Source of the DNA: a phage
Length of the DNA stretch: 64,000 nucleotides
NCBI GenBank assembly: GCA_036253035.1
Contig: GCA_036253035.1_4123.1
Reading direction: 5' to 3' (one strand)
The translations under genes were made by a program, and so were the position numbers. The notes below the pieces were generated by a model that was not told the origin of the DNA, searched no databases, and saw only the letters and a list, made by a program, of their open reading frames with translations. This document shows, in pieces, positions 6,811 to 39,959 of this stretch. Each line of letters starts with the position of its first letter. Within the stretch, counting starts at the first letter, position 1.

Positions 6811-7197
6811 CTAATCGTTCCATTTAATAGGATACTCCTTTCCTTGTACTATGTACGACAAAATCCATCCGTAATGAATAGGATGATTTTTGTCTGAATC
6901 AGGAATAAAATATAAAGCTGTACTTGGATTATGACTGAATAAATCTTTATTGTCAAATGTAAAATGTGATAATATAATTTTCCTTGTAATTGGACGAATA
7001 ACATTCTTAACACTGAACTCTGATCCTTTGTATTTTTCCGATAATTCAAATAATGCATCTGTAATTAAATCACTGAACTCTTGAATTACAAAATTCTGAT
7101 AAAATGCATTAATCTCTTTAAACTCTGTATACATTTCACTTCTTGTATTCAAAAGGAATATTACTTGTTTAAGATCCTGTACTATTGTTGGGTTCAT
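6811..7197 (-). CDS. hypothetical protein (128 aa)
   Basis: Track ORF; preferred over alternate-frame 6849..7058. Confidence 0.5.
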   Translation of the reverse strand: MNPTIVQDLKQVIFLLNTRSEMYTEFKEINAFYQNFVIQEFSDLITDALFELSEKYKGSEFSVKNVIRPITRKIILSHFTFDNKDLFSHNPSTALYFIPDSDKNHPIHYGWILSYIVQGKEYPIKWND

Positions 7198-7435
7198 ATT
7201 TGTTTATCTCATTATGTACCTTAAGCATCAAAATTTGCATATGAATTTTTTGTTCAAGGTGCTTGATAAATTTCTGTGCCATTTCTTCTTGTTCCGATGT
7301 ACCAAGATAAAATAACAGATTAAATTCTGATAATCGCAAAGAAAAATCTTCATCACCACCCTTTAAACAAAAATCCCTGTACTTTGTAGCGTACAAATAT
7401 TGGTTTACTTTTTTATAATACCCTGTGTTTTGCAT
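7169..7435 (-). CDS. small protein, LGTNYQE-family outlier
   Basis: Motif FYLGTSEQEEMAQKFIKHL matches the 9.8-15.4 kb array family. Confidence 0.5.
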   Translation of the reverse strand: MQNTGYYKKVNQYLYATKYRDFCLKGGDEDFSLRLSEFNLLFYLGTSEQEEMAQKFIKHLEQKIHMQILMLKVHNEINKYEPNNSTGS

Positions 7436-7620
7436 ACGATCTCCGTTCGCAATGAACTTATATAATAATGAATGTATTGTTCCTGTGAACGTGTTCCAAG
7501 AAAAATAAACATATCAAACTCTGTTCTTTTTAAATTCAATGCATCTTTTGTTAAACTAGTACTGAATTCCCTGTACTTTTGGGTCTTCCATTCTTGATTA
7601 ATTGTCTTGTACATTGACAT
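7405..7620 (-). CDS. small protein, LGTNYQE-family outlier
   Basis: Motif IFLGTRSQEQYIHYYISSL. Confidence 0.5.
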   Translation of the reverse strand: MSMYKTINQEWKTQKYREFSTSLTKDALNLKRTEFDMFIFLGTRSQEQYIHYYISSLRTEIVCKTQGIIKK

Positions 7621-7918
7621 ATATGGTTCTTCCTTGTGTGCCTTGTATTAGCCTATCAAACACATCGAGCATCACTTTTTGAATATTAATTAGTACTGGC
7701 ATCGTGCAAATATCAATGTCATATACTAAGCTGTACTGGAATAATTCATCTTCCTGCATTTGTACTAAATTAGGTAAAGGATAATTGTCTGCCTCTTCAT
7801 CCTGGTACTTGAAATGCATAACACCATCCTTTTTGTACAATAGAATGTCAAGATCACCTAACTCATCAGCATAACCAAATATACATACATTAGATGTTTT
7901 TGCTATATTAAATTTCAT
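7598..7918 (-). CDS. hypothetical protein, EEFFQ-motif family
   Basis: Motif QEDELFQYSLVYDIDI. Confidence 0.55.
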   Translation of the reverse strand: MKFNIAKTSNVCIFGYADELGDLDILLYKKDGVMHFKYQDEEADNYPLPNLVQMQEDELFQYSLVYDIDICTMPVLINIQKVMLDVFDRLIQGTQGRTIYVNVQDN

Positions 7919-8724
7919 GATTTATATTGTTCCTTAAAAACACCACAATGATAATTTTTATTGTATTGTGTAATACTATAATCACACGGCATTGTCCCGC
8001 ACGAAGCTCTGTGTTTTAAACGTTCCAATACCTTATCGTAATCTTTACTGAAAATGCCATTTTCATTAGGCGTAGCAATCATTAATGCTTGCTCATATAA
8101 ATCTTTTGTTCTTGTTGAACCATGCGAATGTTTGTTAAAATAAAATACATATTCAACTTCCCAATTACTTCTTAAATAGGATATTCCGTAATTGGTAATC
8201 ATATAATAATGTAAATCCTTGTAATAATTGAATGTCTTATCTGTATTAATCAAAATATATGAAGAACTATCATTGTCCTTAATAACAAATAAACGACCAA
8301 TCTTATTTTCTTTATCTTTAACTAATTGTCTAATTTCATCACCTTCTTCAAATTTACGATGCACTTCAATTACAGATTTAGCAATCCCAGTCTGTACTAA
8401 AGATTCATATGCTGCGTACATAAAATCACTTACATGACCTAAACCAACATCTTCTTTTCTTGGTGTCTCTGTTGTATTGACAAACATATTCAATAACTTT
8501 TCAATTGAAAAATCAGTACTGCAATCTTTATTAATTTTAATTTTTTCTCGAATCTCTTCCTTTAATGCATTAATATATTGCTCTTGTGCTGCTTCCTGAT
8601 AATTTGTACCAAGATATAAACTCAAGGCAACTGAACCTTTGTAAGATGCTGATTTCTTTAAATCACCAGAACTAAATTTTTTCATAATCAAATTGGTTGC
8701 TTCAGATTCTGTTAAAAATTTCAT
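7915..8724 (-). CDS. hypothetical protein with N-terminal LGTNYQE-family module fused to larger C-terminal domain
   Basis: N-terminal 60 aa contains LYLGTNYQEAAQEQYINALKEEI; 269 aa total. Confidence 0.6.
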   Translation of the reverse strand: MKFLTESEATNLIMKKFSSGDLKKSASYKGSVALSLYLGTNYQEAAQEQYINALKEEIREKIKINKDCSTDFSIEKLLNMFVNTTETPRKEDVGLGHVSDFMYAAYESLVQTGIAKSVIEVHRKFEEGDEIRQLVKDKENKIGRLFVIKDNDSSSYILINTDKTFNYYKDLHYYMITNYGISYLRSNWEVEYVFYFNKHSHGSTRTKDLYEQALMIATPNENGIFSKDYDKVLERLKHRASCGTMPCDYSITQYNKNYHCGVFKEQYKS

Positions 8725-8832: not shown

Positions 8833-9183
8833 TTATATGTGGAATTCACATACGTGTTGAACAAAATTCTTTGGAAGATGACAATGTGCAATCATCTGCT
8901 GTTGCACTTTCTTCATATCTTCTAATGTAAAACCTAAAGAATCATCGTGTACTAACATGTACTGAAACTCTTCTTCTTCAGAGATAGAACATAAATTCGG
9001 TACTGAAATTGTATTTGTTTTTCTTGCACCTAATTTCCAATGAAAAGAATTATTACATTTTCTGTACTCAAATATCTTCAACCCAGAACCCGTATTAAAA
9101 TCAGCTACTACAATGTAACATGAATTCTTACGTACAATACAATTGAATTTACGCATTATCTCCACCTCACTCCGTCTGTACAA
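8833..9183 (-). CDS. hypothetical protein, EEFFQ-motif family
   Basis: Motif SEEEEFQYMLVHDDSL. Confidence 0.55.
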   Translation of the reverse strand: MYRRSEVEIMRKFNCIVRKNSCYIVVADFNTGSGLKIFEYRKCNNSFHWKLGARKTNTISVPNLCSISEEEEFQYMLVHDDSLGFTLEDMKKVQQQMIAHCHLPKNFVQHVCEFHI

Positions 9184-9401
9184 GAGTACTGGTACGTTGT
9201 CGTTAGGGTAGGGACCATGTTCGTAATTGGCATGTTGTTAACAATAACCGTAACAGGCATAAGAATCGTCTCTACTCTACTCTGTCCTGTCCTTGTGCAA
9301 TTCATCTTCTGCATTTCATCTGAATCCATGAAATACAATACAAATGGTGCAATCCCAAGAACAATACACAAGACGATAAGGAAATTTAAAAAATTCAACA
9401 T
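9156..9401 (-). CDS. hypothetical protein with hydrophobic N-terminus
   Basis: ATG start; own promoter-like TTGACA-N17-TATAGT just upstream; N-terminal MLNFLNFLIVLCIVLGIAPFVLYF. Confidence 0.45.
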   Translation of the reverse strand: MLNFLNFLIVLCIVLGIAPFVLYFMDSDEMQKMNCTRTGQSRVETILMPVTVIVNNMPITNMVPTLTTTYQYSCTDGVRWR

Positions 9402-9430
9402 AATCTGTACCCTATGATTAACGTTGGTGC

Positions 9431-9459
9431 ACTATATCAGTAATGAAAAGTACTGTCAA
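9431..9459 (-). promoter_or_regulatory. sigma70-like promoter (TTGACA-N17-TATAGT)
   Basis: Minus-strand -35 at 9454-9459 and -10 at 9431-9436, upstream of gene 9156..9401. Confidence 0.45.
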
Positions 9460-9491
9460 GAACATTTGTACTCTCAGTACTATCAGAACTC

Positions 9492-9833
9492 TTAATACTC
9501 AATAATGTGTTCTTCATAATCACCATTAGGCTCCTGTTTAGATTCTTTCATTAGTACTATCATCTTATGTACTAATGGCATAGGGAACTCTAAATCCCAT
9601 ACTAATGATTCCTGGAAGTATTCCTCTGGTGATAAAGTACTTAAATCTTCAATGTCAATGTGTTCGTACATATTATTTTCGTAATTAGCAAAAGAGATAT
9701 ATAAACCTCCTGTTAAACTGTAAGTAACTGTGAATGGTTTACCTTTGTAGTCCATTACATCTTTACATAGACTACTTTTAACGTATATATTTTCATACGA
9801 TATGTATACCCTGAGTTGAATTTTAGTTTTCAT
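9492..9833 (-). CDS. hypothetical protein, EEFFQ-motif family
   Basis: Motif SPEEYFQESLVWDLEF; start abuts stop of last array gene. Confidence 0.55.
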   Translation of the reverse strand: MKTKIQLRVYISYENIYVKSSLCKDVMDYKGKPFTVTYSLTGGLYISFANYENNMYEHIDIEDLSTLSPEEYFQESLVWDLEFPMPLVHKMIVLMKESKQEPNGDYEEHIIEY

Positions 9834-10083
9834 TTTTATATTTCTTCGCTTTCTGAGTTTTGGAATTAATCAATTCAATTAAAGTAATTAAGTACAACTT
9901 CAAATAATAATCTTGTTCATTCGTACCTAATGATACAAATAACTTATGCTCATAAATTAATACCTGTTTCACTACAAAGGGACACTTAATCCTCTGTATA
10001 GGTTTAAGTAAATGATAGTACTTATTAAATCTATGATACATTTCTAATTCTGTCAGTACTTTCATATTAAACACATACTCCAT
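9823..10083 (-). CDS. LGTNYQE-family small protein
   Basis: Core VSLGTNEQDYY; tandem array member. Confidence 0.6.
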   Translation of the reverse strand: MEYVFNMKVLTELEMYHRFNKYYHLLKPIQRIKCPFVVKQVLIYEHKLFVSLGTNEQDYYLKLYLITLIELINSKTQKAKKYKNEN

Positions 10084-10288
10084 TAGCAGTAGCAGTACTT
10101 AAAGCACTCAAATACCTCTGTACGGCTTGCTCTTGATGATCTGTACCTAAAAGTATATACACCCATAATTCATTGTAGTGTACATCTTCTGTATAAGGGT
10201 TGTTGTAACTTTTTGATAATATAGCATCAAATTCAGATGCATAATCCCTTGTGAACTTAAACATATCTTGTTGTGTTATGATTCTCAT
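10067..10288 (-). CDS. LGTNYQE-family small protein
   Basis: Core LLGTDHQEQ; start overlaps upstream stop. Confidence 0.65.
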   Translation of the reverse strand: MRIITQQDMFKFTRDYASEFDAILSKSYNNPYTEDVHYNELWVYILLGTDHQEQAVQRYLSALSTATANGVCV

Positions 10289-10500
10289 AACTTTTCCTGT
10301 ATAAGCTTCTTAAGTATTTCTATGTGTGAATTAACAGTTCTTTCTTGATGCTGTGTTCCTAAGAGTGTCAGTACTATCATCTCTGAACGCAAAAGATTTT
10401 TTTCAAGTTCACTTATATCAGTTCTTGAATCAAGTGCCATATATTTGTGATTATTCTTCCTGAATAGTGCCAAGTACTCTTGATTTGATATTATCTTCAT
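10285..10500 (-). CDS. LGTNYQE-family small protein
   Basis: Core LLGTQHQER; 4-nt start/stop overlaps both sides. Confidence 0.65.
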   Translation of the reverse strand: MKIISNQEYLALFRKNNHKYMALDSRTDISELEKNLLRSEMIVLTLLGTQHQERTVNSHIEILKKLIQEKL

Positions 10501-10712
10501 AGTTTACTTTGAATTTCCATTAAAAGTGCTCTAATATGCTCATTGACAAATCTCTCTTGGGAATCTGTGTCTAGGGTGAGAAGCATTCTTAATTCTGAAC
10601 CTCTGATGGTATATTCTAAATCATTCTTTGATTCTCGCATAAGTTTCTGAAAGGATGAGAAGTGTAATCCCATGAGTTCAATGTATTCTGCTGTTCCTAG
10701 TGGTTTTGGCAT
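10497..10712 (-). CDS. LGTNYQE-family small protein
   Basis: Core TLDTDSQER; coupled. Confidence 0.65.
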   Translation of the reverse strand: MPKPLGTAEYIELMGLHFSSFQKLMRESKNDLEYTIRGSELRMLLTLDTDSQERFVNEHIRALLMEIQSKL

Positions 10713-10924
10713 TTTAGTTCAATCGCTCGTTTAAGTGTATTAATATAATCATTAATATTGCATTCTTGATAGTTAGTCCCTAGTGTAGCTTGAACATAGA
10801 TTTCATTTCTCTTAATAATTTTATCCATATCTGGTATATCTGATGTGTTAATAACAAACAACTTCAAAAACAATCCATTTATAATTGTTAGGTATTCTTC
10901 GTCGGTAATCATTCGCATTTGCAT
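10697..10924 (-). CDS. LGTNYQE-family small protein
   Basis: Core TLGTNYQEC; coupled. Confidence 0.65.
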   Translation of the reverse strand: MQMRMITDEEYLTIINGLFLKLFVINTSDIPDMDKIIKRNEIYVQATLGTNYQECNINDYINTLKRAIELKCQNH

Positions 10925-11130
10925 CTTCTCAGTACTGATTCTTTAAGTTCATCAATGTAGTACTCTACATATTCTTCTTGTAGGTTTGTTCCGAGATGTA
11001 ACAGTACTCTTAAATCTGCTCTCAGTACTTCTTTATCATCTTCATCTATATCAGACAGTGTTATGTTTAAGAATTTACTTGAACTCTCTATAAGTAATAT
11101 TACTGAATCACCTTTGCTTAAAATTTTCAT
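10909..11130 (-). CDS. LGTNYQE-family small protein
   Basis: Core HLGTNLQEE; coupled. Confidence 0.65.
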   Translation of the reverse strand: MKILSKGDSVILLIESSSKFLNITLSDIDEDDKEVLRADLRVLLHLGTNLQEEYVEYYIDELKESVLRRCKCE

Positions 11131-11338
11131 AATCTCTTTTTGCTTTCCTCGCCAAAAGGTACATATACGATTCTTCGTATTGTGCTTGGTAGTTTGTGTT
11201 TAAGAGTCGAAACAACTTCTGTTCTGCTAGAACTAGTTGCTTATCTTCATAACAACGATAGCGTATCAACTTTTTGTATTCGATGTTGATTACATCCATT
11301 ACTATAAGCCCATGTTCATCATCTGTCAAGTGTTTCAT
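11108..11338 (-). CDS. LGTNYQE-family small protein
   Basis: Core LLNTNYQAQ; coupled. Confidence 0.6.
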   Translation of the reverse strand: MKHLTDDEHGLIVMDVINIEYKKLIRYRCYEDKQLVLAEQKLFRLLNTNYQAQYEESYMYLLARKAKRDYENFKQR

Positions 11339-11564
11339 GTATCTTTTCCTTAATAGTGATTTTAAGAGATTTAATTATACGTTCAACGTGATACTCCTGC
11401 CTATCAGTTCCAAGAAGGTATGGTAGTGCTTGGAATAGAGCTTCCGCATTCTTTTCCTCTGGGGTTTGGTTTGGGTTGTGAGGAAGTTGATTTGTATATC
11501 TCTTGGCACTAACTAATCTCTCGACGTATTCATTATATGTTAAGTATATCATTTCATTTTGCAT
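11319..11564 (-). CDS. LGTNYQE-family small protein
   Basis: Core LLGTDRQEY; N-terminus MQNEMIY identical to next copy. Confidence 0.65.
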   Translation of the reverse strand: MQNEMIYLTYNEYVERLVSAKRYTNQLPHNPNQTPEEKNAEALFQALPYLLGTDRQEYHVERIIKSLKITIKEKIHETLDR

Positions 11565-11784
11565 TTACTTTTTCCTTAATACTCATCATAAGATGTTCAA
11601 TCATATTTTGAACCATAAATTCTTGTTTATCAGTTCCAAGAACGTATGGTAACTTCTGAAACAATACATTTGCAGATACTTCATATATTGATTGATTTGG
11701 AACGAACTTAAGATTAATGTTTTTTGTTTTTAACATCTTCTCTTGAAATTCTTCATTCGTTATGTATATCATTTCATTTTGCAT
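11554..11784 (-). CDS. LGTNYQE-family small protein
   Basis: Core VLGTDKQEF; N-terminus MQNEMIY. Confidence 0.65.
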   Translation of the reverse strand: MQNEMIYITNEEFQEKMLKTKNINLKFVPNQSIYEVSANVLFQKLPYVLGTDKQEFMVQNMIEHLMMSIKEKVNAK

Positions 11785-12000
11785 TTACATTCTCTCATAT
11801 ATATTTTGGGTTAAAAGGTCAATCCAGATTTCCACATATCGTTGTTGGTGTTGCGTCCCTAACAGTACACCCAACTTAGCTTCACACTCTAATAACAATC
11901 TGGTTTTGTATGGTAGACTTTGAAATCCTATTGTAGCATCTAATTTGGAAATTGCATAGTTGATGCGTATGAACCTTTCTTGTAATGTGATGTTAATCAT
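11785..12000 (-). CDS. LGTNYQE-family small protein
   Basis: Core LLGTQHQQR. Confidence 0.65.
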   Translation of the reverse strand: MINITLQERFIRINYAISKLDATIGFQSLPYKTRLLLECEAKLGVLLGTQHQQRYVEIWIDLLTQNIYERM

Positions 12001-12259
12001 TCCTAGTACACCTTAGTGGGCGGGTCATTTGATGAAAGTACAGCTTACCTCTGATTTCCATTAGTAATTCATTTAATACGAGTTGTACCTCTTGTTCTTG
12101 ATAGTTAGTTCCTAGCATAGCACCCATTATCAACTCACGTATCATAATCATCTTCTTGTCGTGTTTGATTTCTTCGCTGTAATAGATTTCGGTGCGTTTA
12201 GTTGAGATTTTTGCACGTCGCTCGTTATATTCATCTTTACTTAAATTGATCATTTTCAT
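11993..12259 (-). CDS. LGTNYQE-family small protein
   Basis: Core MLGTNYQEQ; start moved to ATG of MKMINLSKDEY (track start is TTG within upstream gene). Confidence 0.6.
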   Translation of the reverse strand: MKMINLSKDEYNERRAKISTKRTEIYYSEEIKHDKKMIMIRELIMGAMLGTNYQEQEVQLVLNELLMEIRGKLYFHQMTRPLRCTRND

Positions 12260-12260
12260 G

Positions 12261-12491
12261 TTAATTACCCTTACATTTATTTTCAATACTATTCATGAGT
12301 TCTTTAAGATAGTTTTTTACCTTACCTGCCTGATAGTTCGTCCCTAGAAAGTTGCACAACTCTGCTTCTATGATTTTGATTTTCCTGATATCAGGCTTCA
12401 ATCTTTTGTTATTGAATATTTGAATCCTTATATCTCTGGATGCATTTAAACGTTTTTGATATTCATGGTAAGTTAAATTAATCATTTTCAT
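12261..12491 (-). CDS. LGTNYQE-family small protein
   Basis: Core FLGTNYQAG; N-terminus MKMINL. Confidence 0.65.
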   Translation of the reverse strand: MKMINLTYHEYQKRLNASRDIRIQIFNNKRLKPDIRKIKIIEAELCNFLGTNYQAGKVKNYLKELMNSIENKCKGN

Positions 12492-12706
12492 TTACGTTTA
12501 ACCTCTCGCTGGAGGGAATCAATTAACATCAGTACCGCATTCTCTTGATAGTTTGTTCCTAAGACTGAAAGCATCTTTATCTCATTTACTAAAATCAACT
12601 TCTTTGAGGGTTCAATAATGTGACTATCATAAACGGCCTTACGTGCTGGATAAGTTTTCGCCAGTATAACATAAAATTCGTCTTTACTTAAATTAATCAT
12701 TTGCAT
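12488..12706 (-). CDS. LGTNYQE-family small protein
   Basis: Core VLGTNYQEN; N-terminus MQMINL. Confidence 0.65.
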   Translation of the reverse strand: MQMINLSKDEFYVILAKTYPARKAVYDSHIIEPSKKLILVNEIKMLSVLGTNYQENAVLMLIDSLQREVKRK

Positions 12707-12915
12707 TTACTTTTAACCTCTTTCTGTAGTGCATCGATCCATAGGTCTACATAAGTGTGTTGATAGTTTGTGCCTAAGAGTGTTAAGACATAAAGTTCAG
12801 TTATCATTATATACTTTCGTTCTTCGGCAATTTTTTTATCCTTTTGAATCATTCTCCTTCTGATTCCACAGGTTTGTAGAAGCTTAACATATTCGAAACC
12901 TATTAATTTTCTCAT
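12697..12915 (-). CDS. LGTNYQE-family small protein
   Basis: Core LLGTNYQHT; start moved to ATG of MRKLIGFEY abutting upstream stop. Confidence 0.6.
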   Translation of the reverse strand: MRKLIGFEYVKLLQTCGIRRRMIQKDKKIAEERKYIMITELYVLTLLGTNYQHTYVDLWIDALQKEVKSKCK

Positions 12916-13127
12916 TTTAAACTCACCGACTTCAGACGTAAGCTGCTTAACCATGCGTCTATGTAGATACTTTGATAGTTTGTCCCAATGAAGAGTAATA
13001 GCTTCATTTCAGCTATTATAACACATCGGTCCGCTTCTGCAATAGAATTATCTAAAAAAGTCCACGAGACTTTTCCTTGTATAGTTCTTAACCTATTGTA
13101 ATACTCATGCTCAGTCAGGATTTTCAT
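12912..13127 (-). CDS. LGTNYQE-family small protein
   Basis: Core FIGTNYQSI; start moved to ATG of MKILTEHEY, preceded by GGAGA. Confidence 0.6.
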   Translation of the reverse strand: MKILTEHEYYNRLRTIQGKVSWTFLDNSIAEADRCVIIAEMKLLLFIGTNYQSIYIDAWLSSLRLKSVSLK

Positions 13128-13374
13128 TCTCACGTCTCCATATCTCGGTTCTAATGTGTTGGCAGTGTGCATCGATGAACATATCTATAGATTTGGTAAT
13201 TGCTGTTTTATCAGTGCCTGTCATCAGTACAAGCATCTCTGCCTCACTATGAATTAAACGCATGATATCATAGGGTAATATTTCAGATACTGTATCATAG
13301 TGTTTTTGTCCTAGATTCTGTAATAGTTTAAAATACATTTTGTGATTTAGTCTTTGTTGCATTGTCTCTTCCAT
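13111..13374 (-). CDS. LGTNYQE-family small protein (divergent)
   Basis: Same size and position in array; core degenerated to LMTGTDKTA; start uncertain. Confidence 0.5.
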   Translation of the reverse strand: MEETMQQRLNHKMYFKLLQNLGQKHYDTVSEILPYDIMRLIHSEAEMLVLMTGTDKTAITKSIDMFIDAHCQHIRTEIWRRENENPD

Positions 13375-13598
13375 TCTCTTTGGGCTTGGCGGGTTTTATC
13401 TGATATTTCGTTTCTCAGTGCAGAGATATATCGTTGAGTGAACAGTTCTTGATAGTTTGTTCCAATGAATTTCATAAGATAAACATCACCGTTGATAACA
13501 TCCAATTCAGGTGCACCATGTAATGCATAGTTTTTTCTAAGGGTGTTAAGAAGAGAGAAGAGGGCAGTCTGATACTCAGTGCTTGATAAAGTCTTCAT
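13347..13598 (-). CDS. LGTNYQE-family small protein
   Basis: Core FIGTNYQEL; start moved to ATG of MKTLSSTEY. Confidence 0.55.
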   Translation of the reverse strand: MKTLSSTEYQTALFSLLNTLRKNYALHGAPELDVINGDVYLMKFIGTNYQELFTQRYISALRNEISDKTRQAQREWKRQCNKD

Positions 13599-13833
13599 AT
13601 TTTTCCACAATTCGTTCATTTAGTTTTATCTGTATAAGATCCATTAGTTGTTCAAGATAATCGGTACAATATTTCTCTTGATATTGGGTTCCCACAAAGT
13701 ACAGCAACCATAGCTCATGAACTTTAACTTTCATCTCGTTCCATGAAAGTTCACCGTCATCGTAGATTAGTCTTGCTTCTGGGGTGAGCTTTCGAATTCT
13801 AAGTGAATATTCATCGTTCGTCAAGTGTTTCAT
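13576..13833 (-). CDS. LGTNYQE-family small protein
   Basis: Core FVGTQYQEK; N-terminus MKHLTNDEY. Confidence 0.65.
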   Translation of the reverse strand: MKHLTNDEYSLRIRKLTPEARLIYDDGELSWNEMKVKVHELWLLYFVGTQYQEKYCTDYLEQLMDLIQIKLNERIVEKYEDFIKH

Positions 13834-13988
13834 TTACATTTATCCCTTATTAGATTTGTGAGTGCAACTATGTGTTCATGGACATAAAAATTCTGATGAG
13901 AAGTTCCAAGAAAGTACAGCATCCATCCCTCACTCTGCTCGACTTTTAGTTTAGTATCGAGTTGGTCAGATATGTTAATGAAAACCAT
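13830..13988 (-). CDS. LGTNYQE-family small protein, N-terminally shortened (52 aa, below track cutoff)
   Basis: Manually translated MVFINISDQLDTKLKVEQSEGWMLYFLGTSHQNFYVHEHIVALTNLIRDKCK; start and stop overlap both neighbours. Confidence 0.5.
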   Translation of the reverse strand: MVFINISDQLDTKLKVEQSEGWMLYFLGTSHQNFYVHEHIVALTNLIRDKCK

Positions 13989-14212
13989 TAGTTCTTTTCC
14001 TTTCTTTCTATTTGTTTCATAAGAACATTGATATACTCACCCGCAAACCTATTCTGATACTGCGTCCCCATGAATTCCAACATCCATACTTCAGCAACCT
14101 TTTCTTCAATTTCAGTCCATTGTAAGTACATCATAGTGAAGTAAATGGTGTTCTCTTTTTTTCTGGCACTCTTAGCACGGGCCTCGTATTCAAAGTTATT
14201 AATGATGTTCAT
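13988..14212 (-). CDS. LGTNYQE-family small protein
   Basis: Core FMGTQYQNR. Confidence 0.65.
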   Translation of the reverse strand: MNIINNFEYEARAKSARKKENTIYFTMMYLQWTEIEEKVAEVWMLEFMGTQYQNRFAGEYINVLMKQIERKEKN

Positions 14213-14426
14213 TACATTTGTCCATTATGTAATTAGTGAGTGCAACGATGTGCTCATGAACATAGCCTTCTTGGAAGTTAGTCCCCAGTACAGCCAACAT
14301 GCGAATCTCGGTGGTGTTTATCCTGTGTTCCCTTATAGATAAACATTCTTTTTGTGGAAGTGTAAAATATTTGTTTATTACAGCAATGATAATTTTATTC
14401 TTCTCTATATTACTTAAATGTTTCAT
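14199..14426 (-). CDS. LGTNYQE-family small protein
   Basis: Core VLGTNFQEG. Confidence 0.65.
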   Translation of the reverse strand: MKHLSNIEKNKIIIAVINKYFTLPQKECLSIREHRINTTEIRMLAVLGTNFQEGYVHEHIVALTNYIMDKCNEHH

Positions 14427-14638
14427 AGTTTGCTCCTGACGTATTTCTCAAGAGATGACAAATACTTTTCCTCATAATACTCCTGATAGTCTGTTCCCAA
14501 GAATGCACCCAAAAGTATTTCATTTTCCAATACCTCGGCTAAGTTTAAATCAGAAGTCTCTTCGTATATTATGAGGATTTCAAGTTGTCTGGCAGCGATG
14601 CGTTCAGTATATTGATATGATTTTTCTAGAATAATCAT
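14423..14638 (-). CDS. LGTNYQE-family small protein
   Basis: Core FLGTDYQEY; near-duplicate of next copy (MIIL...). Confidence 0.65.
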   Translation of the reverse strand: MIILEKSYQYTERIAARQLEILIIYEETSDLNLAEVLENEILLGAFLGTDYQEYYEEKYLSSLEKYVRSKL

Positions 14639-14847
14639 AGTTTACTCTTAATGTGGTTCTGAAGTGCAATAAAGTATTCTCCTACATAATACTCCTGAAA
14701 GTCTGTATCCAAAAATGCACCCATAAGTAAATCCTTCTCCATTACCCTTGATAAGTTAAGATCTGCATTTGAAAGGTATATAAGTAATATTTCAGCCTGG
14801 ACAGATTTAAAACGTTTCTTATATTCTTCAGGTGTTAATATAATCAT
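14635..14847 (-). CDS. LGTNYQE-family small protein
   Basis: Core FLDTDFQEY. Confidence 0.65.
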   Translation of the reverse strand: MIILTPEEYKKRFKSVQAEILLIYLSNADLNLSRVMEKDLLMGAFLDTDFQEYYVGEYFIALQNHIKSKL

Positions 14848-15053
14848 AGTTTACTCTTAATATCTTCTATTAAAAATCGAATCCAATCTTGAACATACTC
14901 TTCCTGATGGTTTGTGTTCAGTACAGCCAACATACGGATCTCTGCTCTTGCAACTTCAATTTCAGTTTTAGGAAGGTCTTTGCTGATATCCACCATTAAG
15001 TCCATGTATTTCAAGATAAGACCGTATGATTGGGTTCGTGTTATAGTTTTCAT
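14844..15053 (-). CDS. LGTNYQE-family small protein
   Basis: Core VLNTNHQEE. Confidence 0.65.
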   Translation of the reverse strand: MKTITRTQSYGLILKYMDLMVDISKDLPKTEIEVARAEIRMLAVLNTNHQEEYVQDWIRFLIEDIKSKL

Positions 15054-15250
15054 TGTTTCCTCGTGGACAAAATTTCATTTTTCAATGTATCCACATATTT
15101 CGTTACCCATGCATCCTGATAGTTAGTTCCCAATGTAATCAAAAGGTATAACTCCATTCGTTCTACGTGTGAGTCTGTATTATAAATCTTTGTGAAGTTT
15201 TTACGTAACAGTGCTTGATATTCTTTTTCGGTTAATTTACGCATTTTCAT
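15050..15250 (-). CDS. LGTNYQE-family small protein
   Basis: Core TLGTNYQDA. Confidence 0.65.
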   Translation of the reverse strand: MKMRKLTEKEYQALLRKNFTKIYNTDSHVERMELYLLITLGTNYQDAWVTKYVDTLKNEILSTRKQ

Positions 15251-15444
15251 AGTTTACTCGTTACATCTTCAATTAAATACCAAATCCAATCCTTGACATA
15301 CCTTTCCTGATAGTTAGTCCCAATGAATAGTGCCATAATTAATTCACGCTTATAGGCAATACCACGGTCATGTGACTTATACATTATCATAGCCATGTTA
15401 TTGATAAGTCTTTCGTGGTGTTCTGCTTGAGTTAAAATACGCAT
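15247..15444 (-). CDS. LGTNYQE-family small protein (first gene of array)
   Basis: Core FIGTNYQER; start moved to ATG of MRILTQAEH with AAGGGAG RBS 5 nt upstream; track start lies inside the promoter. Confidence 0.6.
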   Translation of the reverse strand: MRILTQAEHHERLINNMAMIMYKSHDRGIAYKRELIMALFIGTNYQERYVKDWIWYLIEDVTSKL

Positions 15445-15474
15445 AGGGACTCCCTTGAAAATAATATCAATCAT

Positions 15475-15502
15475 ATAATATATGAATTGTATAAAAAGTC
15501 AA
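15475..15502 (-). promoter_or_regulatory. sigma70-like promoter for the LGTNYQE array (TTGACT-N16-TATTAT)
   Basis: Minus-strand -35 at 15497-15502, -10 at 15475-15480; only promoter-like site upstream of the 26-gene array. Confidence 0.5.
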
Positions 15503-15693
15503 TAACATTTTATTCGTAATACCCCTTTATCGAAGTCGCTAAGGTTACCCGCCCTTTAGCCCCCTACGCATTTTGCCATAGTCCAATCCCTTTTATTTTA
15601 AAAAAGTCAAGGGATTACCTATGCATTTTTTTAACGCATTATTTTAAAAACGCCTTGACTTTTTTCTGAATCAGTACTAGATCCCTTTACGCA

Positions 15694-15903
15694 TTAATCC
15701 TTCGTTACGCTAACGATTATCTGTGTATCCCCGTAGTCCTGCCATACTTCCACGCCATCCGTCGCCCTGGTTAGTCGTGCTGTCATCTGCTTAACAGTCT
15801 TAGGCTTTAGTGGAACCTGTTGCAGTACTGTACGCATAGCATCACTGACGTTATCATGTACGCCAGCAATAGTACCTAGAACGCTGTATACTGTATAGAA
15901 CAT
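15694..15903 (-). CDS. hypothetical protein (69 aa)
   Basis: ATG with AGGAGG RBS 8 nt upstream. Confidence 0.6.
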   Translation of the reverse strand: MFYTVYSVLGTIAGVHDNVSDAMRTVLQQVPLKPKTVKQMTARLTRATDGVEVWQDYGDTQIIVSVTKD

Positions 15904-15971
15904 ATGTATGCCCTCCTGATATAGTTAAGGCCGCTAGAGAGCGGCCTATGATGTTTGGTGATGTGTAATGC

Positions 15972-16373
15972 TTACAGCCCTAAGATAGTGCGTGCTTCGT
16001 TACGTTCCGTCCATAGCTGCATGATGTGAGCAAGTAAGTCCTTACTAATGTATCCGGTGTTCATAGCTTCACGGATAGATACATCATAAGCACCGAACCC
16101 CGTGCGAACGATACGCACATCATTTAGGTTAGTGTTATAGATACCGCCAAGATCAACGGCTTCGAATACTGCATCAACTGAATACTCATTGTTACCATCG
16201 TTGAAGTTTTCTAGTGCAATAGTATTGGATACCGCCCAACGTTTGCAGTTTCCAATGATGCGGCATTGTTCCGGTTGGAGAGTGCCATTACTTACAGCGT
16301 ACTCCAGTGCATCTTTACCAAAAGTCCGAGCCAGTACTAAAACGTCAGCGAAGGAAGTGATTGAGAAGGTCAT
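15972..16373 (-). CDS. hypothetical protein (133 aa)
   Basis: Start moved to ATG of MTFSITSF with AAGGAG RBS; track N-terminal extension runs through 5' hairpin. Confidence 0.6.
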   Translation of the reverse strand: MTFSITSFADVLVLARTFGKDALEYAVSNGTLQPEQCRIIGNCKRWAVSNTIALENFNDGNNEYSVDAVFEAVDLGGIYNTNLNDVRIVRTGFGAYDVSIREAMNTGYISKDLLAHIMQLWTERNEARTILGL

Positions 16374-16462
16374 GATAAAACTCCTTAATTTAGGAGGGAG
16401 AACCATTTCCCCCTCTCTATGTAAAACATTATACTTGATTCTAAGTACAATGCAAGTACTTT

Positions 16463-16789
16463 TTACATTTTAATTCCTGGATTCAGGTAACGATGTGATC
16501 CGTATTCTGGATCGGTTTCGGTCCAGTACTGTAAATCGATAGTACCTTTAGCGTTAATCTTGTCTACCAGCTTATTCATCTTACTGTAGACTACTTCGCT
16601 AGGGATGTAGTGTAATCCTTTATTATAGAAGTAGTGGTTAGCTTCACTATCGTTTAAGATATAGCGTGCACCGTTTGCGGTTTGTGCAACAATGAAAGAG
16701 TATTCTACTTCCCGATCATTACCATCAACAGTAATGCGGTCGAAATTGGTACGGATGAAAGCTTTAACGATAGCGATTGAAGTACTCAT
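16463..16789 (-). CDS. hypothetical protein (108 aa)
   Basis: ATG with AGGAG RBS; upstream GC hairpin and TTGACA promoter. Confidence 0.6.
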   Translation of the reverse strand: MSTSIAIVKAFIRTNFDRITVDGNDREVEYSFIVAQTANGARYILNDSEANHYFYNKGLHYIPSEVVYSKMNKLVDKINAKGTIDLQYWTETDPEYGSHRYLNPGIKM

Positions 16790-28560: not shown

Positions 28561-28641
28561 TTTAATTTCCTCTTAGTTGTCTTGATAAAATCTATTATGC
28601 CAGTACTATCAATCTATGTCAATAGTACTGTGATAATAATT

Positions 28642-28854
28642 TTACTTACTTTGCTTTGATGCTTTATGTTGTGCAACTGCCATCACTACATCAGTACGAA
28701 CAAAGTTAGCAACCGTATCAGTATAATATTTGATTGCATCGTCAATATCTGCGAACATCCGATACATTCCGCACCATGATACTTTATAACCCGCTTTCAC
28801 TTGTTCAAGTTTAACCAGTGAATTGTTTACTTTGATTTTTGTAATGATAGCCAT
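28642..28854 (-). CDS. hypothetical protein (70 aa)
   Basis: ATG with AGAGGAAA RBS; promoter/UTR is ~85-bp direct duplicate of the one upstream of 28216..28560. Confidence 0.6.
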   Translation of the reverse strand: MAIITKIKVNNSLVKLEQVKAGYKVSWCGMYRMFADIDDAIKYYTDTVANFVRTDVVMAVAQHKASKQSK

Positions 28855-28936
28855 TTTCTTTTTCCTCTTAGTTGTCTTGATAAAATCTATTATGCCAGTA
28901 CTATCAATCTATGTCAATAGTACTGTGATAATAATT

Positions 28937-29080
28937 TTACTTACTTTTTGCTTTCTTTACAGCTTCCACCTGGTCGGCCCACTCTTTACCCCATACTTGA
29001 GCGTTATAGTGATACTGACAAAGAGCAACGCCCCGTTTCAAACCAGTGATAGATTTTTTACCACATTGACAAGTTTTCAT
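28937..29080 (-). CDS. hypothetical Cys-containing small protein (47 aa, below track cutoff)
   Basis: Manually translated MKTCQCGKKSITGLKRGVALCQYHYN...; 5' hairpin and promoter upstream. Confidence 0.45.
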   Translation of the reverse strand: MKTCQCGKKSITGLKRGVALCQYHYNAQVWGKEWADQVEAVKKAKSK

Positions 29081-36255: not shown

Positions 36256-36447
36256 TTACTTCCTATATATAAGCATTAAGATATAGTAGTACTGATTATA
36301 CTGTACATTCTCTTTAATATTATAAGGGTCTATAGCAATCTCGGTACATCTGTTAAATGCATATCTATTAAATGCCAGTGGAATTATAGATCTAATCCAT
36401 ACTTGTTCATTTTCTTTTAGTTTACTTATATAGAAGTTTTTATACAT
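36256..36447 (-). CDS. MHKEYY-family small protein
   Basis: MYKNFYISKL...ILMLIYRK; last gene of tandem array. Confidence 0.55.
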   Translation of the reverse strand: MYKNFYISKLKENEQVWIRSIIPLAFNRYAFNRCTEIAIDPYNIKENVQYNQYYYILMLIYRK

Positions 36448-36462
36448 AGTATTCTCTATTAA

Positions 36463-36645
36463 TTAATATGATAGTACTAGTGTTAGTACTGAGCACAATT
36501 GTTCTTTATAGTTCTTAGGGTATATAGAATCTTTTATGCACTCATTGAAGTGCCATAGGTATAATCTTGGGTCGCATTCTTTATATATTCTTACGGGGAC
36601 GAATGTTAGTTTTCTTATATAGAATTCTTTATGTTCTTTATTCAT
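36463..36645 (-). CDS. MHKEYY-family small protein
   Basis: MNKEHKEFYIRKL... Confidence 0.55.
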   Translation of the reverse strand: MNKEHKEFYIRKLTFVPVRIYKECDPRLYLWHFNECIKDSIYPKNYKEQLCSVLTLVLSY

Positions 36646-36650
36646 ATTAG

Positions 36651-36836
36651 TTAGTGTCTGTATATAAGTAATAGTAAGAATACGTACTGCACATCTTCAT
36701 CTTTAGTATTGAGTACTGTACGTATTGCGTCATTAAACAAGAATATAGTACTTGGGTCATGAGAATTTAAAGGGGTTCTGGGTACGGCATGTTTGTAGTT
36801 CCCTTTAACAAATTGTGTGTAGTATTCTCTATGCAT
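36651..36836 (-). CDS. MHKEYY-family small protein
   Basis: MHREYYTQFVKGNYKH...LLLLIYRH. Confidence 0.6.
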   Translation of the reverse strand: MHREYYTQFVKGNYKHAVPRTPLNSHDPSTIFLFNDAIRTVLNTKDEDVQYVFLLLLIYRH

Positions 36837-36837
36837 A

Positions 36838-37023
36838 TTAGTACCTATATATTAGGGCGAGAATGTAGTACAATTCATATGGAATGTAATTTGGGGTGAT
36901 CGCACACTGTGTATGGTAAATGAATTGTTCGGTATTTTTCTTATCCTTGATATCTATTGGGATTAGTGGTATAAGCATTTGGGAGTTTAGATCCAGATGG
37001 CTTAAGTAGAATTCTTTATGCAT
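36838..37023 (-). CDS. MHKEYY-family small protein
   Basis: MHKEFYLSHL...ILALIYRY. Confidence 0.6.
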   Translation of the reverse strand: MHKEFYLSHLDLNSQMLIPLIPIDIKDKKNTEQFIYHTQCAITPNYIPYELYYILALIYRY

Positions 37024-37032
37024 ATTGTTCTC

Positions 37033-37221
37033 TTAGAATACGAAAGCTAGGTACAGGGTATGATACAGTACTCGATGATAGCTGTCAAAATCTAGTATAC
37101 ATGCTTTAGTGCACATAGTAAAATACACTTTATCATTTTGTGCATTGATACCGCGAGGTTTATCTAATAGATTAGTTCTGAGGTACATTGGGAAATATTT
37201 TGTGTAGTATTCTTTATGCAT
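37033..37221 (-). CDS. MHKEYY-family small protein
   Basis: Start moved to ATG of MHKEYYTKYFPMYL abutting upstream stop. Confidence 0.55.
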   Translation of the reverse strand: MHKEYYTKYFPMYLRTNLLDKPRGINAQNDKVYFTMCTKACILDFDSYHRVLYHTLYLAFVF

Positions 37222-37222
37222 G

Positions 37223-37405
37223 TTAGTACCTGAATATAAGTAGGATAGTGTTATATAGCTGGTCATAACTACTACTATTTTCTATACTTCGTTCTATGCA
37301 GTTATTGAATCCCAGTACTGCCAAATCGTTATCCAGGGGGACTTTGTATCTGGCGTAGTGTTCAAAAATGCTGGGGAGAAATTGTGTGTAGTATTCTTTG
37401 TGCAT
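37223..37405 (-). CDS. MHKEYY-family small protein
   Basis: MHKEYYTQFLPSIFEHY...ILLIFRY. Confidence 0.6.
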   Translation of the reverse strand: MHKEYYTQFLPSIFEHYARYKVPLDNDLAVLGFNNCIERSIENSSSYDQLYNTILLIFRY

Positions 37406-37406
37406 A

Positions 37407-37592
37407 TTAGTACCTATATATTAGTAAAAGGATGTGATACAGTACTCGATTATAGTCTTCAATATATATCGAGGATTTAGTGCACTGAATGAAGTAGTCT
37501 TTTTCGTAGTTTTTTTCTATACCCAATGGTTCTGTTGGTACAAGGTGTTGGAGATACATTGGGAGTTTCTCTATGTAGTATTCTTTATACAT
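37407..37592 (-). CDS. MHKEYY-family small protein
   Basis: MYKEYYIEKLPMYLQHLVPTEPLGI...LLLIYRY. Confidence 0.6.
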   Translation of the reverse strand: MYKEYYIEKLPMYLQHLVPTEPLGIEKNYEKDYFIQCTKSSIYIEDYNRVLYHILLLIYRY

Positions 37593-37593
37593 G

Positions 37594-37776
37594 TTAGTAC
37601 CTGAATGTTAACATTACTACGTAGTACAGCATATATGGATTATCATCGTATATGAGCGTGTACTTAGTACATTGTTGAAACATTATCTTTGCGTGATCTT
37701 TTATTCCTATTGGTTCTGTTGGTATATGGTGCTGGAGATGCATTGGGAGATGTTCCCTGTAGTATTCTTTATACAT
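37594..37776 (-). CDS. MHKEYY-family small protein
   Basis: Start moved to ATG of MYKEYYREHLPMHLQHHIPTEPIGI. Confidence 0.55.
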   Translation of the reverse strand: MYKEYYREHLPMHLQHHIPTEPIGIKDHAKIMFQQCTKYTLIYDDNPYMLYYVVMLTFRY

Positions 37777-38440
37777 AGTTTGTAATATACGTAATGAGGT
37801 GATGCATTTTCTTATTAGTACTGATAAGTTCCTGTACATGTTTTGTCAGATTGTACGCGTTTTTATAGAGTACTGGATTATCGATTACAGTACTGTACAT
37901 GAATAGTTCTTCTTCCTGTAGTTCTTTGTGTTCTAGTTCTTTGAGGAATTGTAGTACTGTATCAGTTTCTTCTGTACGTTGTGCTTGCCAGAAGTGCATA
38001 TTCTCGTGTACTTTTTCTGCATCAGTAGAGTATATGCCACCCATTTGGAATTGTGCTGTATTGACATCGTGGGAGGTGTTACAATTCCCGAAGAAGTATG
38101 TATTCCCGAAGTATAGCATTAAAGTGCACGGGGTATTATCCAACTGCATATTGATGATGAAGGATGCGTTCTTTAGTACCTTTGTGCTCGTATTAGTACT
38201 CAATACTTTTAAATCAGTATTATAGATATTCATATAATGAACAGCTATATTATTTTTCTTCATGTACAATTCAAGGTTCTTTGATACGTTAACTCCATTT
38301 GTACTGGATTTTTCCTTTTTATTTCGTTTCTTTAGTACATTCGGGTGATACGTATATGCAGATGTAACTGATTCTGCCTGAATACTATTGAGGTACTTAA
38401 AGTGCTTAAGGTATTGTTTGCTGTGTGCATTAAGTTTCAT
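37769..38440 (-). CDS. hypothetical protein, EEFFQ-motif family (dispersed copy)
   Basis: Motif EEELFMYSTVIDNPVLY inside the MHKEYY array. Confidence 0.55.
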   Translation of the reverse strand: MKLNAHSKQYLKHFKYLNSIQAESVTSAYTYHPNVLKKRNKKEKSSTNGVNVSKNLELYMKKNNIAVHYMNIYNTDLKVLSTNTSTKVLKNASFIINMQLDNTPCTLMLYFGNTYFFGNCNTSHDVNTAQFQMGGIYSTDAEKVHENMHFWQAQRTEETDTVLQFLKELEHKELQEEELFMYSTVIDNPVLYKNAYNLTKHVQELISTNKKMHHLITYITNYV

Positions 38441-38450
38441 TTGGTTTCCT

Positions 38451-38630
38451 TTATATAGATGCCAGGGCGAGGATTTCCCTGTAGGGATTATCTTGTGTTA
38501 GTACAGCATAAATGCAGCTATTGAGATTAATATTTTTAGTACTTTTTGTTCCTAGTTTGTAGTACTTCACGAAGGTGTCGTACATGAAACGGTCTTTTAT
38601 GGTTATACGTTCTCTATAGAATTGTTGCAT
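38451..38630 (-). CDS. MHKEYY-family small protein (59 aa, below track cutoff)
   Basis: Manually translated MQQFYRERITIKDRFMYDTF...; AAGGAA RBS. Confidence 0.45.
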   Translation of the reverse strand: MQQFYRERITIKDRFMYDTFVKYYKLGTKSTKNINLNSCIYAVLTQDNPYREILALASI

Positions 38631-38638
38631 AGTATTCC

Positions 38639-38821
38639 TTAAATAGCGATTAGTTTCATTACTTCTCTGTATGTGTACTTTTCGTTTTGTGCATCTCTTG
38701 TGACGACATATAGGAAGGTGTGTTTATCTTTTTTGTTCCCGCAATTGTAGAAAATATTGAACTTATTGAAGTTGAATCTTTCGGCGTGTTGTAGTTTAGT
38801 TAAATAGAATTCTATGTTCAT
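38639..38821 (-). CDS. MHKEYY-family small protein
   Basis: MNIEFYLTKL...KYTYREVMKLIAI. Confidence 0.55.
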   Translation of the reverse strand: MNIEFYLTKLQHAERFNFNKFNIFYNCGNKKDKHTFLYVVTRDAQNEKYTYREVMKLIAI

Positions 38822-38829
38822 TTTCTTCC

Positions 38830-39015
38830 TTACATTTCAATAAGTTTAATTACTGCTCGGTACGTGTACTTAGTTGTCAGTGCTTCTTTAATAGAAATAC
38901 AGAAGTAATGTTGTTTGTCTCTTATACTGCCGCGTTTGTAGTACCACACATGGGAGTTGTGACTGTACTTGTCTCTGTCGGATAGTTGTTGGTAGTAGTA
39001 GCTTATATGATTCAT
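38830..39015 (-). CDS. MHKEYY-family small protein
   Basis: MNHISYYYQQL...KYTYRAVIKLIEM. Confidence 0.55.
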   Translation of the reverse strand: MNHISYYYQQLSDRDKYSHNSHVWYYKRGSIRDKQHYFCISIKEALTTKYTYRAVIKLIEM

Positions 39016-39067
39016 TATAATGTAATTAGCCTTACTATATTAAAGTACTCAGTTCCTGTTGCACCTT

Positions 39068-39262
39068 TTAGAACTTAAAGATGAGGTTCAGGATAGAGCG
39101 GTACTTAGTTTCAGGGAACGTATGTTCTATTGCATAACGTGTCACCATCCTGAAATCGTAATTATAATACAGATTATCCTTTCTCATAGGTGGTGCTAAA
39201 GAGAATGATAGCTGTTCTTGTTTGGGTAGTTTACTACAATAGAAATCTTTATGATTATTCAT
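39068..39262 (-). CDS. MHKEYY-family small protein
   Basis: MNNHKDFYCSKL... Confidence 0.55.
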   Translation of the reverse strand: MNNHKDFYCSKLPKQEQLSFSLAPPMRKDNLYYNYDFRMVTRYAIEHTFPETKYRSILNLIFKF

Positions 39263-39464
39263 AGAAATATATTAGTCCTATTAAACCTGAGTACATAATA
39301 TTTTTGTTATTACATTCGATTGCTTCTAGAGTACTACGTATACAATTATTAAAGCAATCTCTGGCGTGTGGTGTATCTATACTTAAAGGTGATACACTCC
39401 TTAGAAACAATTGTTCTTCGTTGCTAAGGTATTTGGTGTAGAATTCTTTATGTTCAGTATTCAT
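39255..39464 (-). CDS. MHKEYY-family small protein
   Basis: MNTEHKEFYTKYL... Confidence 0.55.
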   Translation of the reverse strand: MNTEHKEFYTKYLSNEEQLFLRSVSPLSIDTPHARDCFNNCIRSTLEAIECNNKNIMYSGLIGLIYFYE

Positions 39465-39465
39465 A

Positions 39466-39669
39466 TTAGTACTCGATTAAAAGGGCAAGGATATAATAGT
39501 ATTGCATACTTTCTGCCCCTTGTAAAGCATTTCTTATGATATTACTCCTGTACGAGTTCAGGAGTTTAGGACAACGTTTGTAGTGTATAAAAGTATTTTG
39601 TGTATACAGTAGGCTTTCTCGTAGACCTTTTGTTGGTAGTGCATCGATGTAGTACTGTTCAATGTTCAT
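39466..39669 (-). CDS. MHKEYY-family small protein
   Basis: MNIEQYYIDAL... Confidence 0.5.
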   Translation of the reverse strand: MNIEQYYIDALPTKGLRESLLYTQNTFIHYKRCPKLLNSYRSNIIRNALQGAESMQYYYILALLIEY

Positions 39670-39947: not shown

Positions 39948-39959
39948 GGGTTTTCTTTT

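Follow-up and report, generated by a model that had tools for sequence, protein, structure and literature searches.

A row of 26 overlapping genes for small, predicted four-helix proteins beside the terminal repeat of an Asteriusvirus jumbo phage

What does a large phage make of 26 diverged copies of one small gene, set head to tail on a single strand? The question is raised by a stretch of phage DNA of 64,000 nucleotides (NCBI GenBank assembly GCA_036253035.1, contig GCA_036253035.1_4123.1), referred to below as the window, in which positions 9823–15444 are occupied by 26 consecutive minus-strand open reading frames (ORFs) encoding proteins with a shared L-G-T-N-Y-Q-E core (the LGTNYQE family). 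The window belongs to an Asteriusvirus jumbo coliphage of about 350 kb, with 121Q, G17 and EC.P1 as relatives. In a megablast search, region 9000–16500 matched 42 jumbo phage genomes (E. coli, Salmonella and Klebsiella), the closest being Escherichia phages 121Q (95.5% identity), G17, Sharanji and relatives of 348–386 kb in the genus Asteriusvirus, and all of the genes under these matches are labelled ‘hypothetical protein’. One accessory gene of the window has 100% identity to Escherichia phage EC.P1. The locus is best explained as a lineage-specific multigene family of small soluble four-helix proteins, carried in one long operon of 26 genes. The purpose of these proteins can be proposed only tentatively: with a probability of roughly 45%, the array is a battery of early-made host-interaction proteins, acting in takeover of the host or in counter-defence.

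The gene family and its array

The LGTNYQE family is sharply delimited. The window contains 29 members, 26 in the array and three more at 7169–8724, and both the M-K-x-L-T-x-x-E-Y N-terminus and the L-G-T-N-Y-Q-E core stand in register in every one of them. Within the core, the T is invariant, the Q is present in 28 copies and the G in 25; the L downstream is found in 28. A profile hidden Markov model (HMM) built from the copies and run against the six-frame translation of all 64 kb recovered exactly these 29 proteins (E values of 1e-26 to 1e-15, and at most 1e-17 for each array gene), with the next-best ORF at E~1. The initial annotation had described a tandem array of 26 consecutive ORFs for small paralogues, with stop/start overlaps along the array, one N-terminally shortened member, one member that had lost the core, and three further members outside the array, one of them fused to a 200-residue domain. 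All of this is borne out by the alignment, the HMM and the gene coordinates: the family is genuine, its copies align in register, and its genes run head to tail. The coding status of the genes is supported by the evidence on selection, ribosome-binding sites and fold given below.

The array genes follow one another at a mean pitch of 216 bp and, with starts set at the family N-terminus, encode proteins of 52–88 residues (Table 1). Their junctions are tight: 22 of the 25 overlap by 1–23 nt, ten of these by the 4-nt ATGA type, and the remaining three have gaps of 0–1 nt. Shine-Dalgarno words precede 16 of the 26 array starts, as against 18% of internal ATGs, and several genes end in a C-terminal K-S-K-L encoded by AAG-AGT-AAA-CTA-TGA, a string that also serves the gene that follows, as its ribosome-binding site and start codon. 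Such a layout is typical of translational coupling, and it is from the layout that we infer coupling itself. In seven genes, the longest ORF starts upstream of the family N-terminus. Gene 1 itself begins with the ATG at 15444, preceded by AAGGGAG, because the −10 element of the promoter-like site discussed below abuts the first ATG, at 15474. The plus strand across the array has short scattered ORFs only.

The array genes are real coding genes, as indicated by the ratio of nonsynonymous to synonymous substitution rates (dN/dS), by the enrichment in Shine-Dalgarno words and by the confidently predicted fold, and purifying selection maintains each of them individually. Against their reciprocal-best orthologues in Turkey3, 22 of 24 family genes had a dN/dS below 1 (median 0.37), whereas the median for the neighbouring genes of the terminal repeat was 0.17 (Mann-Whitney p = 6e-6); the family evolves faster than the repeat genes, under purifying selection that is moderately relaxed. 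When 113 orthologue pairs were pooled and divided by structural region, the ratio was 0.18 in the motif loop and 0.35–0.55 elsewhere. Reading frames are intact in all genomes examined. It might be supposed that the array is evolutionary debris, a set of neutrally amplified ORFs without present function, given that no function is known for it, that the region is hypervariable and that constraint is relaxed in comparison with neighbouring genes. This is highly improbable, and the idea is largely refuted by the selection data, since almost all copies have a dN/dS far under 1 and the motif has a value of 0.18; the intact frames, the confident fold and the occurrence of the family in at least three phage lineages speak against it as well.

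The two aberrant members are also kept in relatives. According to the alignment, the shortened protein of 52 residues (gene 8) is without helices 1 and 2; it is retained in G17 (96% identity) and absent from Turkey3 and vB_Ec-M-J. In gene 11 (‘MTGTDKTAITKSID’), GTDKT and a six-residue insertion replace GTNYQE. This protein is still recognized by the HMM at E=1e-17, and its orthologues are 84–100% identical, with a dN/dS of 0.20–0.23.

The initial annotation had also taken adjacent copies to be near-identical and duplication to be ongoing, and neither claim could be upheld. Pairs of array proteins share 25% of their amino acids on average. The highest value, in the MIIL pair (genes 4 and 5), is 48.6% at the amino-acid and 66% at the nucleotide level; the MQNEMIY pair has 46% and 64%, respectively. 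Tandem Repeats Finder detected no periodicity of about 215 bp in the array. The paralogues are old, each of them being separately conserved in related phages, and recent duplication within this genome is unsupported because the copies are not near-identical. Adjacent pairs are nevertheless more alike than pairs in general (mean identities of 28.3% for adjacent and 24.9% for all pairs; permutation p = 1e-4), which would fit an origin by tandem duplication, albeit an old one. Two other accounts of the locus, a DNA-level tandem repeat and an assembly artefact, were excluded: the divergence of the copies is too great for detection by Tandem Repeats Finder, and the array is syntenic in seven independent genomes.

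Predicted fold and distribution

AlphaFold2, run on the 29-copy alignment, gave a model with a predicted local distance difference test score (pLDDT) of 97.3 and a predicted template modelling score (pTM) of 0.83. The model has helices at residues 8–17, 19–27, 33–47 and 54–71, together with a beta-bridge from residue 4 to the invariant T51. Independent BFVD models of paralogues from 121Q, UB and slurp01 fit onto it with template modelling (TM) scores of 0.73–0.91. The family protein is predicted with high confidence to be a soluble four-helix bundle. The highest hydropathy over 19 residues is 1.44, from which no transmembrane segment is predicted, and a membrane protein is excluded on that ground. 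Isoelectric points lie between 4.4 and 9.8; of the 29 proteins, 12 are acidic and 12 basic.

Positions of low entropy are M3, L6, T7, E10, Y11, E42, L45, L49, G50, T51, N52, Y53, Q54, E55, Y57, V58, Y61, I62, L65, I69 and K72. The T-x-x-E and T-x-x-Q-E motifs, joined in the model by the short beta-bridge, may be read as helix N-caps, and the other conserved residues as a hydrophobic stripe along helix 4; this reading is derived from the secondary structure. Residues 12–41, which run from the last part of helix 1 through helix 2 and the loop into helix 3, are almost unconstrained and carry the insertions and deletions; helices 1–3 and the loop between helices 2 and 3 are almost wholly different from copy to copy. 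The family could also be a battery of adaptors, in which the invariant polar and aromatic cluster (T-x-x-E-Y, E42 and G-T-N-Y-Q-E), besides capping helices, served as a handle that docked every copy onto one common hub, and the hypervariable helices 1–3 recruited differing host proteins. Such an arrangement is very unlikely. If it were true, the hub might be a phage enzyme or a component of the host (a protease, RNA polymerase or the ribosome); the family would correspond, among bacterial viruses, to the ankyrin/F-box families of poxviruses, and the 200-residue domain of the fusion protein would be recruited cargo hard-wired to the handle.

Searches with the predicted fold bear on several further readings. 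The best matches in the PDB were generic, AcrIIC4 appearing merely at E=6 with a TM score of 0.29, and no fold relatives were found outside the family. Among known anti-defence proteins (anti-CRISPRs and Ocr/Ard-type mimics), no characterized inhibitor showed similarity in sequence (PDB) or in fold. The L-G-T-N-Y-Q-E core resembles the ‘LGVSxxTV’ turn of Xre-type helix-turn-helix domains, and the copies could be imagined as small nucleic-acid-binding regulators in which the core supplied the turn and the recognition helix, with one site for each copy. The expansion of a zinc ribbon to about 35 copies in phage G, where transcription factors have been suggested (PMC7824862), lends this idea some colour. 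It is improbable, however, as fold, profile and charge all weigh against it: neither a profile match to a helix-turn-helix of the Xre/Cro type nor a tri-helical fold was found.

By analogy with the tandem arrays that small immunity proteins form in polymorphic toxin systems, an immunity-type battery, directed against the toxins of competitors (superinfecting phages, bacteriocins or abortive-infection effectors), would account for small helical bundles, for tandem diverged paralogues and for rapid replacement between strains. This, too, is improbable: no cognate toxin domain occurs among the neighbouring genes tested, the top PDB fold matches include no immunity-protein chain, and a test for colicin-type immunity, in the form of an Im7/Im9-like fold with an adjacent cognate toxin gene, came out negative. 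An immunity role overlaps the preferred reading of the array as a host-interaction battery, and the two cannot be separated on the basis of sequence alone.

The family corresponds to PHROG 4148 together with phrog_28039, both of which are listed as being of unknown function. PHROG 4148 is matched over the full length by 28 of the 29 copies, with a best E value of 5e-24 (for the first member, E=3.6e-21 over residues 3–72 of 72). Pfam, NCBIfam and PADLOC yielded nothing meaningful for any of the 29, and a profile search of PDB sequences gave no match at E≤10. A profile search of 1.84 billion representative proteins returned 92 clusters only, all of them consistent with this phage clade, and the clusters that were traced lie in Asteriusvirus genomes, in Klebsiella phages RaK2 or K64-1, or in metagenome contigs; a word-indexed search with a broader profile of 74 sequences added no further remote or annotated relatives. 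RaK2 has 13 members in small dispersed clusters. A 101-kb metagenome contig from the European Nucleotide Archive (ENA), here called L008, represents an uncultured lineage with no nucleotide match to any isolated phage and carries 17–19 members, 12 of them contiguous. The family is thus found in at least three phage lineages. NCBI files many of its members as ‘hypothetical protein [Escherichia coli]’, on contigs of 343–384 kb; these appear to be whole jumbo-phage genomes inside E. coli assemblies, reflecting either a carrier state or contamination.

The literature searched, covering 121Q, PBECO4, RaK2, CBB, Sharanji, fEgEco12 and phAPEC6, jumbo-phage reviews and transposon-sequencing preprints, contains generic remarks on paralogues and nothing on this family. 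Expansions of paralogues are already known as a general feature of jumbo phages, and the family had already been clustered as a PHROG; its fold, the overlapping array of 26 genes and the position at the repeat boundary are not described in that literature.

The terminal repeat and turnover between phages

Terminal repeats of 20,993 bp in fEgEco12 (confirmed by restriction digests) and 20,668 bp in Sharanji have been reported (PMC13070987, PMC11895373). In vB_Ec-M-J, the annotated direct terminal repeat occupies positions 1–21525 of the record, and the first family gene starts at 21624. Mapped to the window, this annotation places the repeat at about 15547–36000 (about 20.4 kb); from the end annotated for the vB_Ec-M-J repeat it is about 100 nt to the beginning of the array. 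GC skew changes sign at about 36000, from negative below to positive above, in coincidence with the outer end of the repeat, which is the mapped physical left end of the genome. The arrangement suggests that the two copies of the terminal repeat have been collapsed into one in the window assembly.

The repeat contains at least 30 copies of an intergenic module of 76–105 nt, in the same orientation as the array. On the gene (minus) strand, the module consists of TTGACA, 17 nt, TGn-TATAAT and a GC-rich hairpin (GGGGAAnnnTTCCCC), and owing to these copies nearly every small gene of the repeat is preceded by a consensus sigma70 promoter and a leader hairpin. Two promoter-containing intergenic copies of 87 nt within the repeat (28566–28652 and 28861–28947), 295 nt apart, are 100% identical and look like a recent local duplication. 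Between repeat and array, the gene strand has no predicted terminator-like site. The mapping of the repeat and the promoter modules together make the array the first operon of the unique region, directly downstream of a bank of strong host-type promoters.

A conserved non-coding element, coincident with the inner end of the direct terminal repeat, separates the last gene of the repeat from the array (Table 1). Its cores are GGATTGGACTATGG and GCGGGTAAcc-TTAGCGA, and it is the sole nucleotide match between the window and L008 (L008 positions 632–726; 77% over 101 nt, E=4e-13), in which it again lies just upstream of the family array. There is one copy per locus and genome, and the annotated end of the vB_Ec-M-J repeat maps inside it. 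The element includes a 9-bp hairpin, and its RNA fold has a z-score of −2.3. It may be a terminase or repeat-boundary site, or a leader of the array.

The sigma70-like site directly upstream of gene 1, a match to the consensus only, is conserved in vB_Ec-M-J and Turkey5 and is not present in L008. The initial annotation had presented it as the single promoter-like site of the whole array. The site exists, but its singleness is not established: equally good promoter-like sites lie within the array (for example, at 11329–11301 and 13824–13796), and the promoter scan gave 55 sites where 57 are expected in shuffled sequence. A single promoter for the whole array is plausible.

The comparison of copy number across related genomes that the initial annotation had proposed gave a range of 23 to about 30. 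For the main array, 121Q has 23 genes, this window and vB_Ec-M-J have 26 each, Turkey3 has about 28, and phAPEC6 and G17 have about 29–30. Within one genome pair, the identity of orthologues runs from 100% down to about 40–60%. In the comparison with Turkey5, the repeat genes are 76–100% identical and, from the first array gene on, identity is 29–52%; the matches in the Turkey5 array are paralogous only, and its set of members is largely different. Given this turnover, and given that no region has a dN/dS near 1, divergence between phages is mainly a matter of replacement, gain and loss of members. Change in the array shows between genomes, and not as fresh duplicates inside this one. In G17 (L004, 9343–9767) and phAPEC6 (L005, 9186–9610), the best matches to genes 4 and 5 (window 14423–14847) stand in reversed order, which hints at recombination or gene conversion between these neighbouring paralogues.

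Turnover on this scale bears on the possibility that the paralogues co-assemble into one hetero-oligomeric structure (for instance, a scaffold inside the cell, or a factor for replication or assembly), with coupling fixing the stoichiometry. Tight coupling within a single operon would suit such a structure, and the conserved polar/aromatic patch (E10, Y11, E42, T51, N52, Y53, Q54 and E55) could be the interface between subunits. Co-assembly is unlikely, however, with a copy number that varies from 23 to about 30, sets that are replaced in Turkey5 and L008, and members that are dispersed in RaK2. The proteins gp460–gp489 of phAPEC6 are also not mentioned in the main text of the virion proteome study (PMC7247149), a weak point that extends to the main text only.

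Several other features of the window deserve mention. The fusion protein of the outlying group is recognized by the HMM at E=1e-15 and matches phrog_4148 over residues 1–63. Its C-terminal domain (7918–8514, minus strand) shares 40% identity with an ORF that stands alone in Klebsiella phages RaK2 (ORF380) and K64-1; this unannotated ORF is its sole relative, with no match in Pfam, PHROG or the PDB. The fusion gene is absent from 121Q, G17, phAPEC6, Turkey3 and vB_Ec-M-J, and the isolates carrying it are EC.P1 and UB only. The phrog_13866 gene overlapping array gene 26 probably closes the transcription unit of the array, and a promoter-like site follows it at 9459–9431. The phrog_13866 family has three genes here, encoding proteins of 106–113 residues with the motif F-Q-x-S-L-V-x-D, and these are interleaved with the last LGTNYQE members; the starts of two of them (9492–9833 and 7598–7918) overlap the stop codon of an LGTNYQE gene. 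The phrog_11711 genes adjoin the terminal repeat just beyond its outer end and point the same way as its genes. The second and larger tandem array, on the other side of the physical genome end, encodes proteins with RCC1-like beta-propeller repeats (Pfam RCC1/RCC1_2, phrog_4219). The window contains no tRNA and no Rfam families.

Table 1. Features of the window; array genes are given in transcription order, with the stop codon included in their coordinates.
Feature	Position	Strand	Remarks
Array gene 1	15247–15444	−	
Array gene 2	15050–15250	−	
Array gene 3	14844–15053	−	
Array gene 4	14635–14847	−	MIIL pair
Array gene 5	14423–14638	−	MIIL pair
Array gene 6	14199–14426	−	
Array gene 7	13988–14212	−	
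Array gene 8	13830–13988	−	N-terminally shortened, 52 residues
Array gene 9	13576–13833	−	
Array gene 10	13347–13598	−	
Array gene 11	13111–13362	−	disrupted core
Array gene 12	12912–13127	−	
Array gene 13	12697–12915	−	
Array gene 14	12488–12706	−	
Array gene 15	12261–12491	−	
Array gene 16	11993–12259	−	
Array gene 17	11785–12000	−	
Array gene 18	11554–11784	−	
Array gene 19	11319–11564	−	
Array gene 20	11108–11338	−	
Array gene 21	10909–11130	−	
Array gene 22	10697–10924	−	
Array gene 23	10497–10712	−	
Array gene 24	10285–10500	−	
Array gene 25	10067–10288	−	
Array gene 26	9823–10065	−	
Sigma70-like site	15475–15502	−	TTGACT-16 nt-TATTAT, directly upstream of array, 10/12 consensus positions
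Conserved non-coding element	15536–15630	−	between last terminal-repeat gene and array
phrog_13866 gene, 113 residues	9492–9833	−	overlaps last array gene
phrog_13866 paralogues	7598–7918, 8833–9156	−	
Fusion protein, 269 residues	7915–8724	−	family domain at residues 1–64 plus C-terminal domain of about 200 residues
Outlying family member, 71 residues	7405–7620	−	alignment, HMM
Outlying family member, 88 residues	7169–7435	−	alignment, HMM
Third paralogous family	36259–39476	−	8 genes, 65–83 residues, phrog_11711 (function unknown), mostly contiguous
Second tandem array	39900–57287	+	16 adjacent paralogous ORFs, about 14 of them of about 390 residues

Proposed function and comparison with known systems

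The reading of the array as a host-interaction battery would work as follows. Host RNA polymerase would transcribe the array early, starting at the site at 15502–15475, reading through from the strong promoters in the terminal repeat, or both. Translation would be coupled at the overlapping junctions, with their embedded Shine-Dalgarno words, such that all copies were made together. Each copy would present its own variable surface on the common scaffold and bind a different partner, the likeliest partners being strain-variable host proteins or the proteins of competing elements, and the whole would form an arsenal for host takeover or counter-defence. Several points weigh against this proposal: we infer early timing, translational coupling and target binding alike; no Asteriusvirus transcriptome was found in the searched literature; the promoter scan showed no enrichment over shuffled sequence; and there is no regional positive selection, region-wise dN/dS (0.18–0.55) coming nowhere near 1, and hence no sign of pervasive selection of the arms-race type.

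Jumbo phages of the Asteriusvirus group are in development for therapy, with more than 80% of their genes lacking a known function. The array alone represents about 5% of the genes of the phage, and it is the point at which near-identical relatives begin to differ. If the host-interaction role is correct, the array would be a compact, readable determinant of the strains that a phage can take over, and would supply about two dozen new small binding proteins with a common scaffold. Annotators gain a well-delimited family, a confidently predicted fold, and revised start codons for genes hitherto labelled ‘hypothetical’.

PHROG 4148 is the same family, in an entry that carries no description of function, structure, tandem array or repeat-adjacent position. 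Among the paralogue expansions of jumbo phages, Bacillus phage G has about 35 zinc-ribbon copies (PMC7824862), and about 10% of the genes of RaK2 are paralogues (PMC3622015). These expansions have in common with the array a large genome and many diverged copies of one small domain. The array differs from them in its previously undescribed fold, in its contiguous operon of 26 overlapping genes and in its conserved position directly inside the terminal-repeat boundary.

Beyond the jumbo phages, the layout of the array is like that of the MGF110/360 families of African swine fever virus (ASFV) and the host-range families of poxviruses, in which tandem diverged paralogues lie near the genome termini, vary in number between isolates and have ties to host interaction. 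Their proteins are unrelated to the LGTNYQE family, and their hosts belong to another domain of life. Im7/Im9 and the poly-immunity arrays of bacteria, the former being helical bundles of about 70–90 residues and the latter tandem arrays of diverged paralogues, share both of these traits with the LGTNYQE family. The pre-early region of T5 and genes 37–60 of SPO1 (gp37-60) are host-takeover modules in terminal redundancies: clusters of genes for small early proteins, placed in or beside long terminal repeats and transcribed by host RNA polymerase from strong promoters. The genes of these modules are unrelated to one another and each has its own promoter, which makes them similar to the terminal repeat of this window, whereas the array consists of a single family in one putatively coupled operon just outside the repeat.

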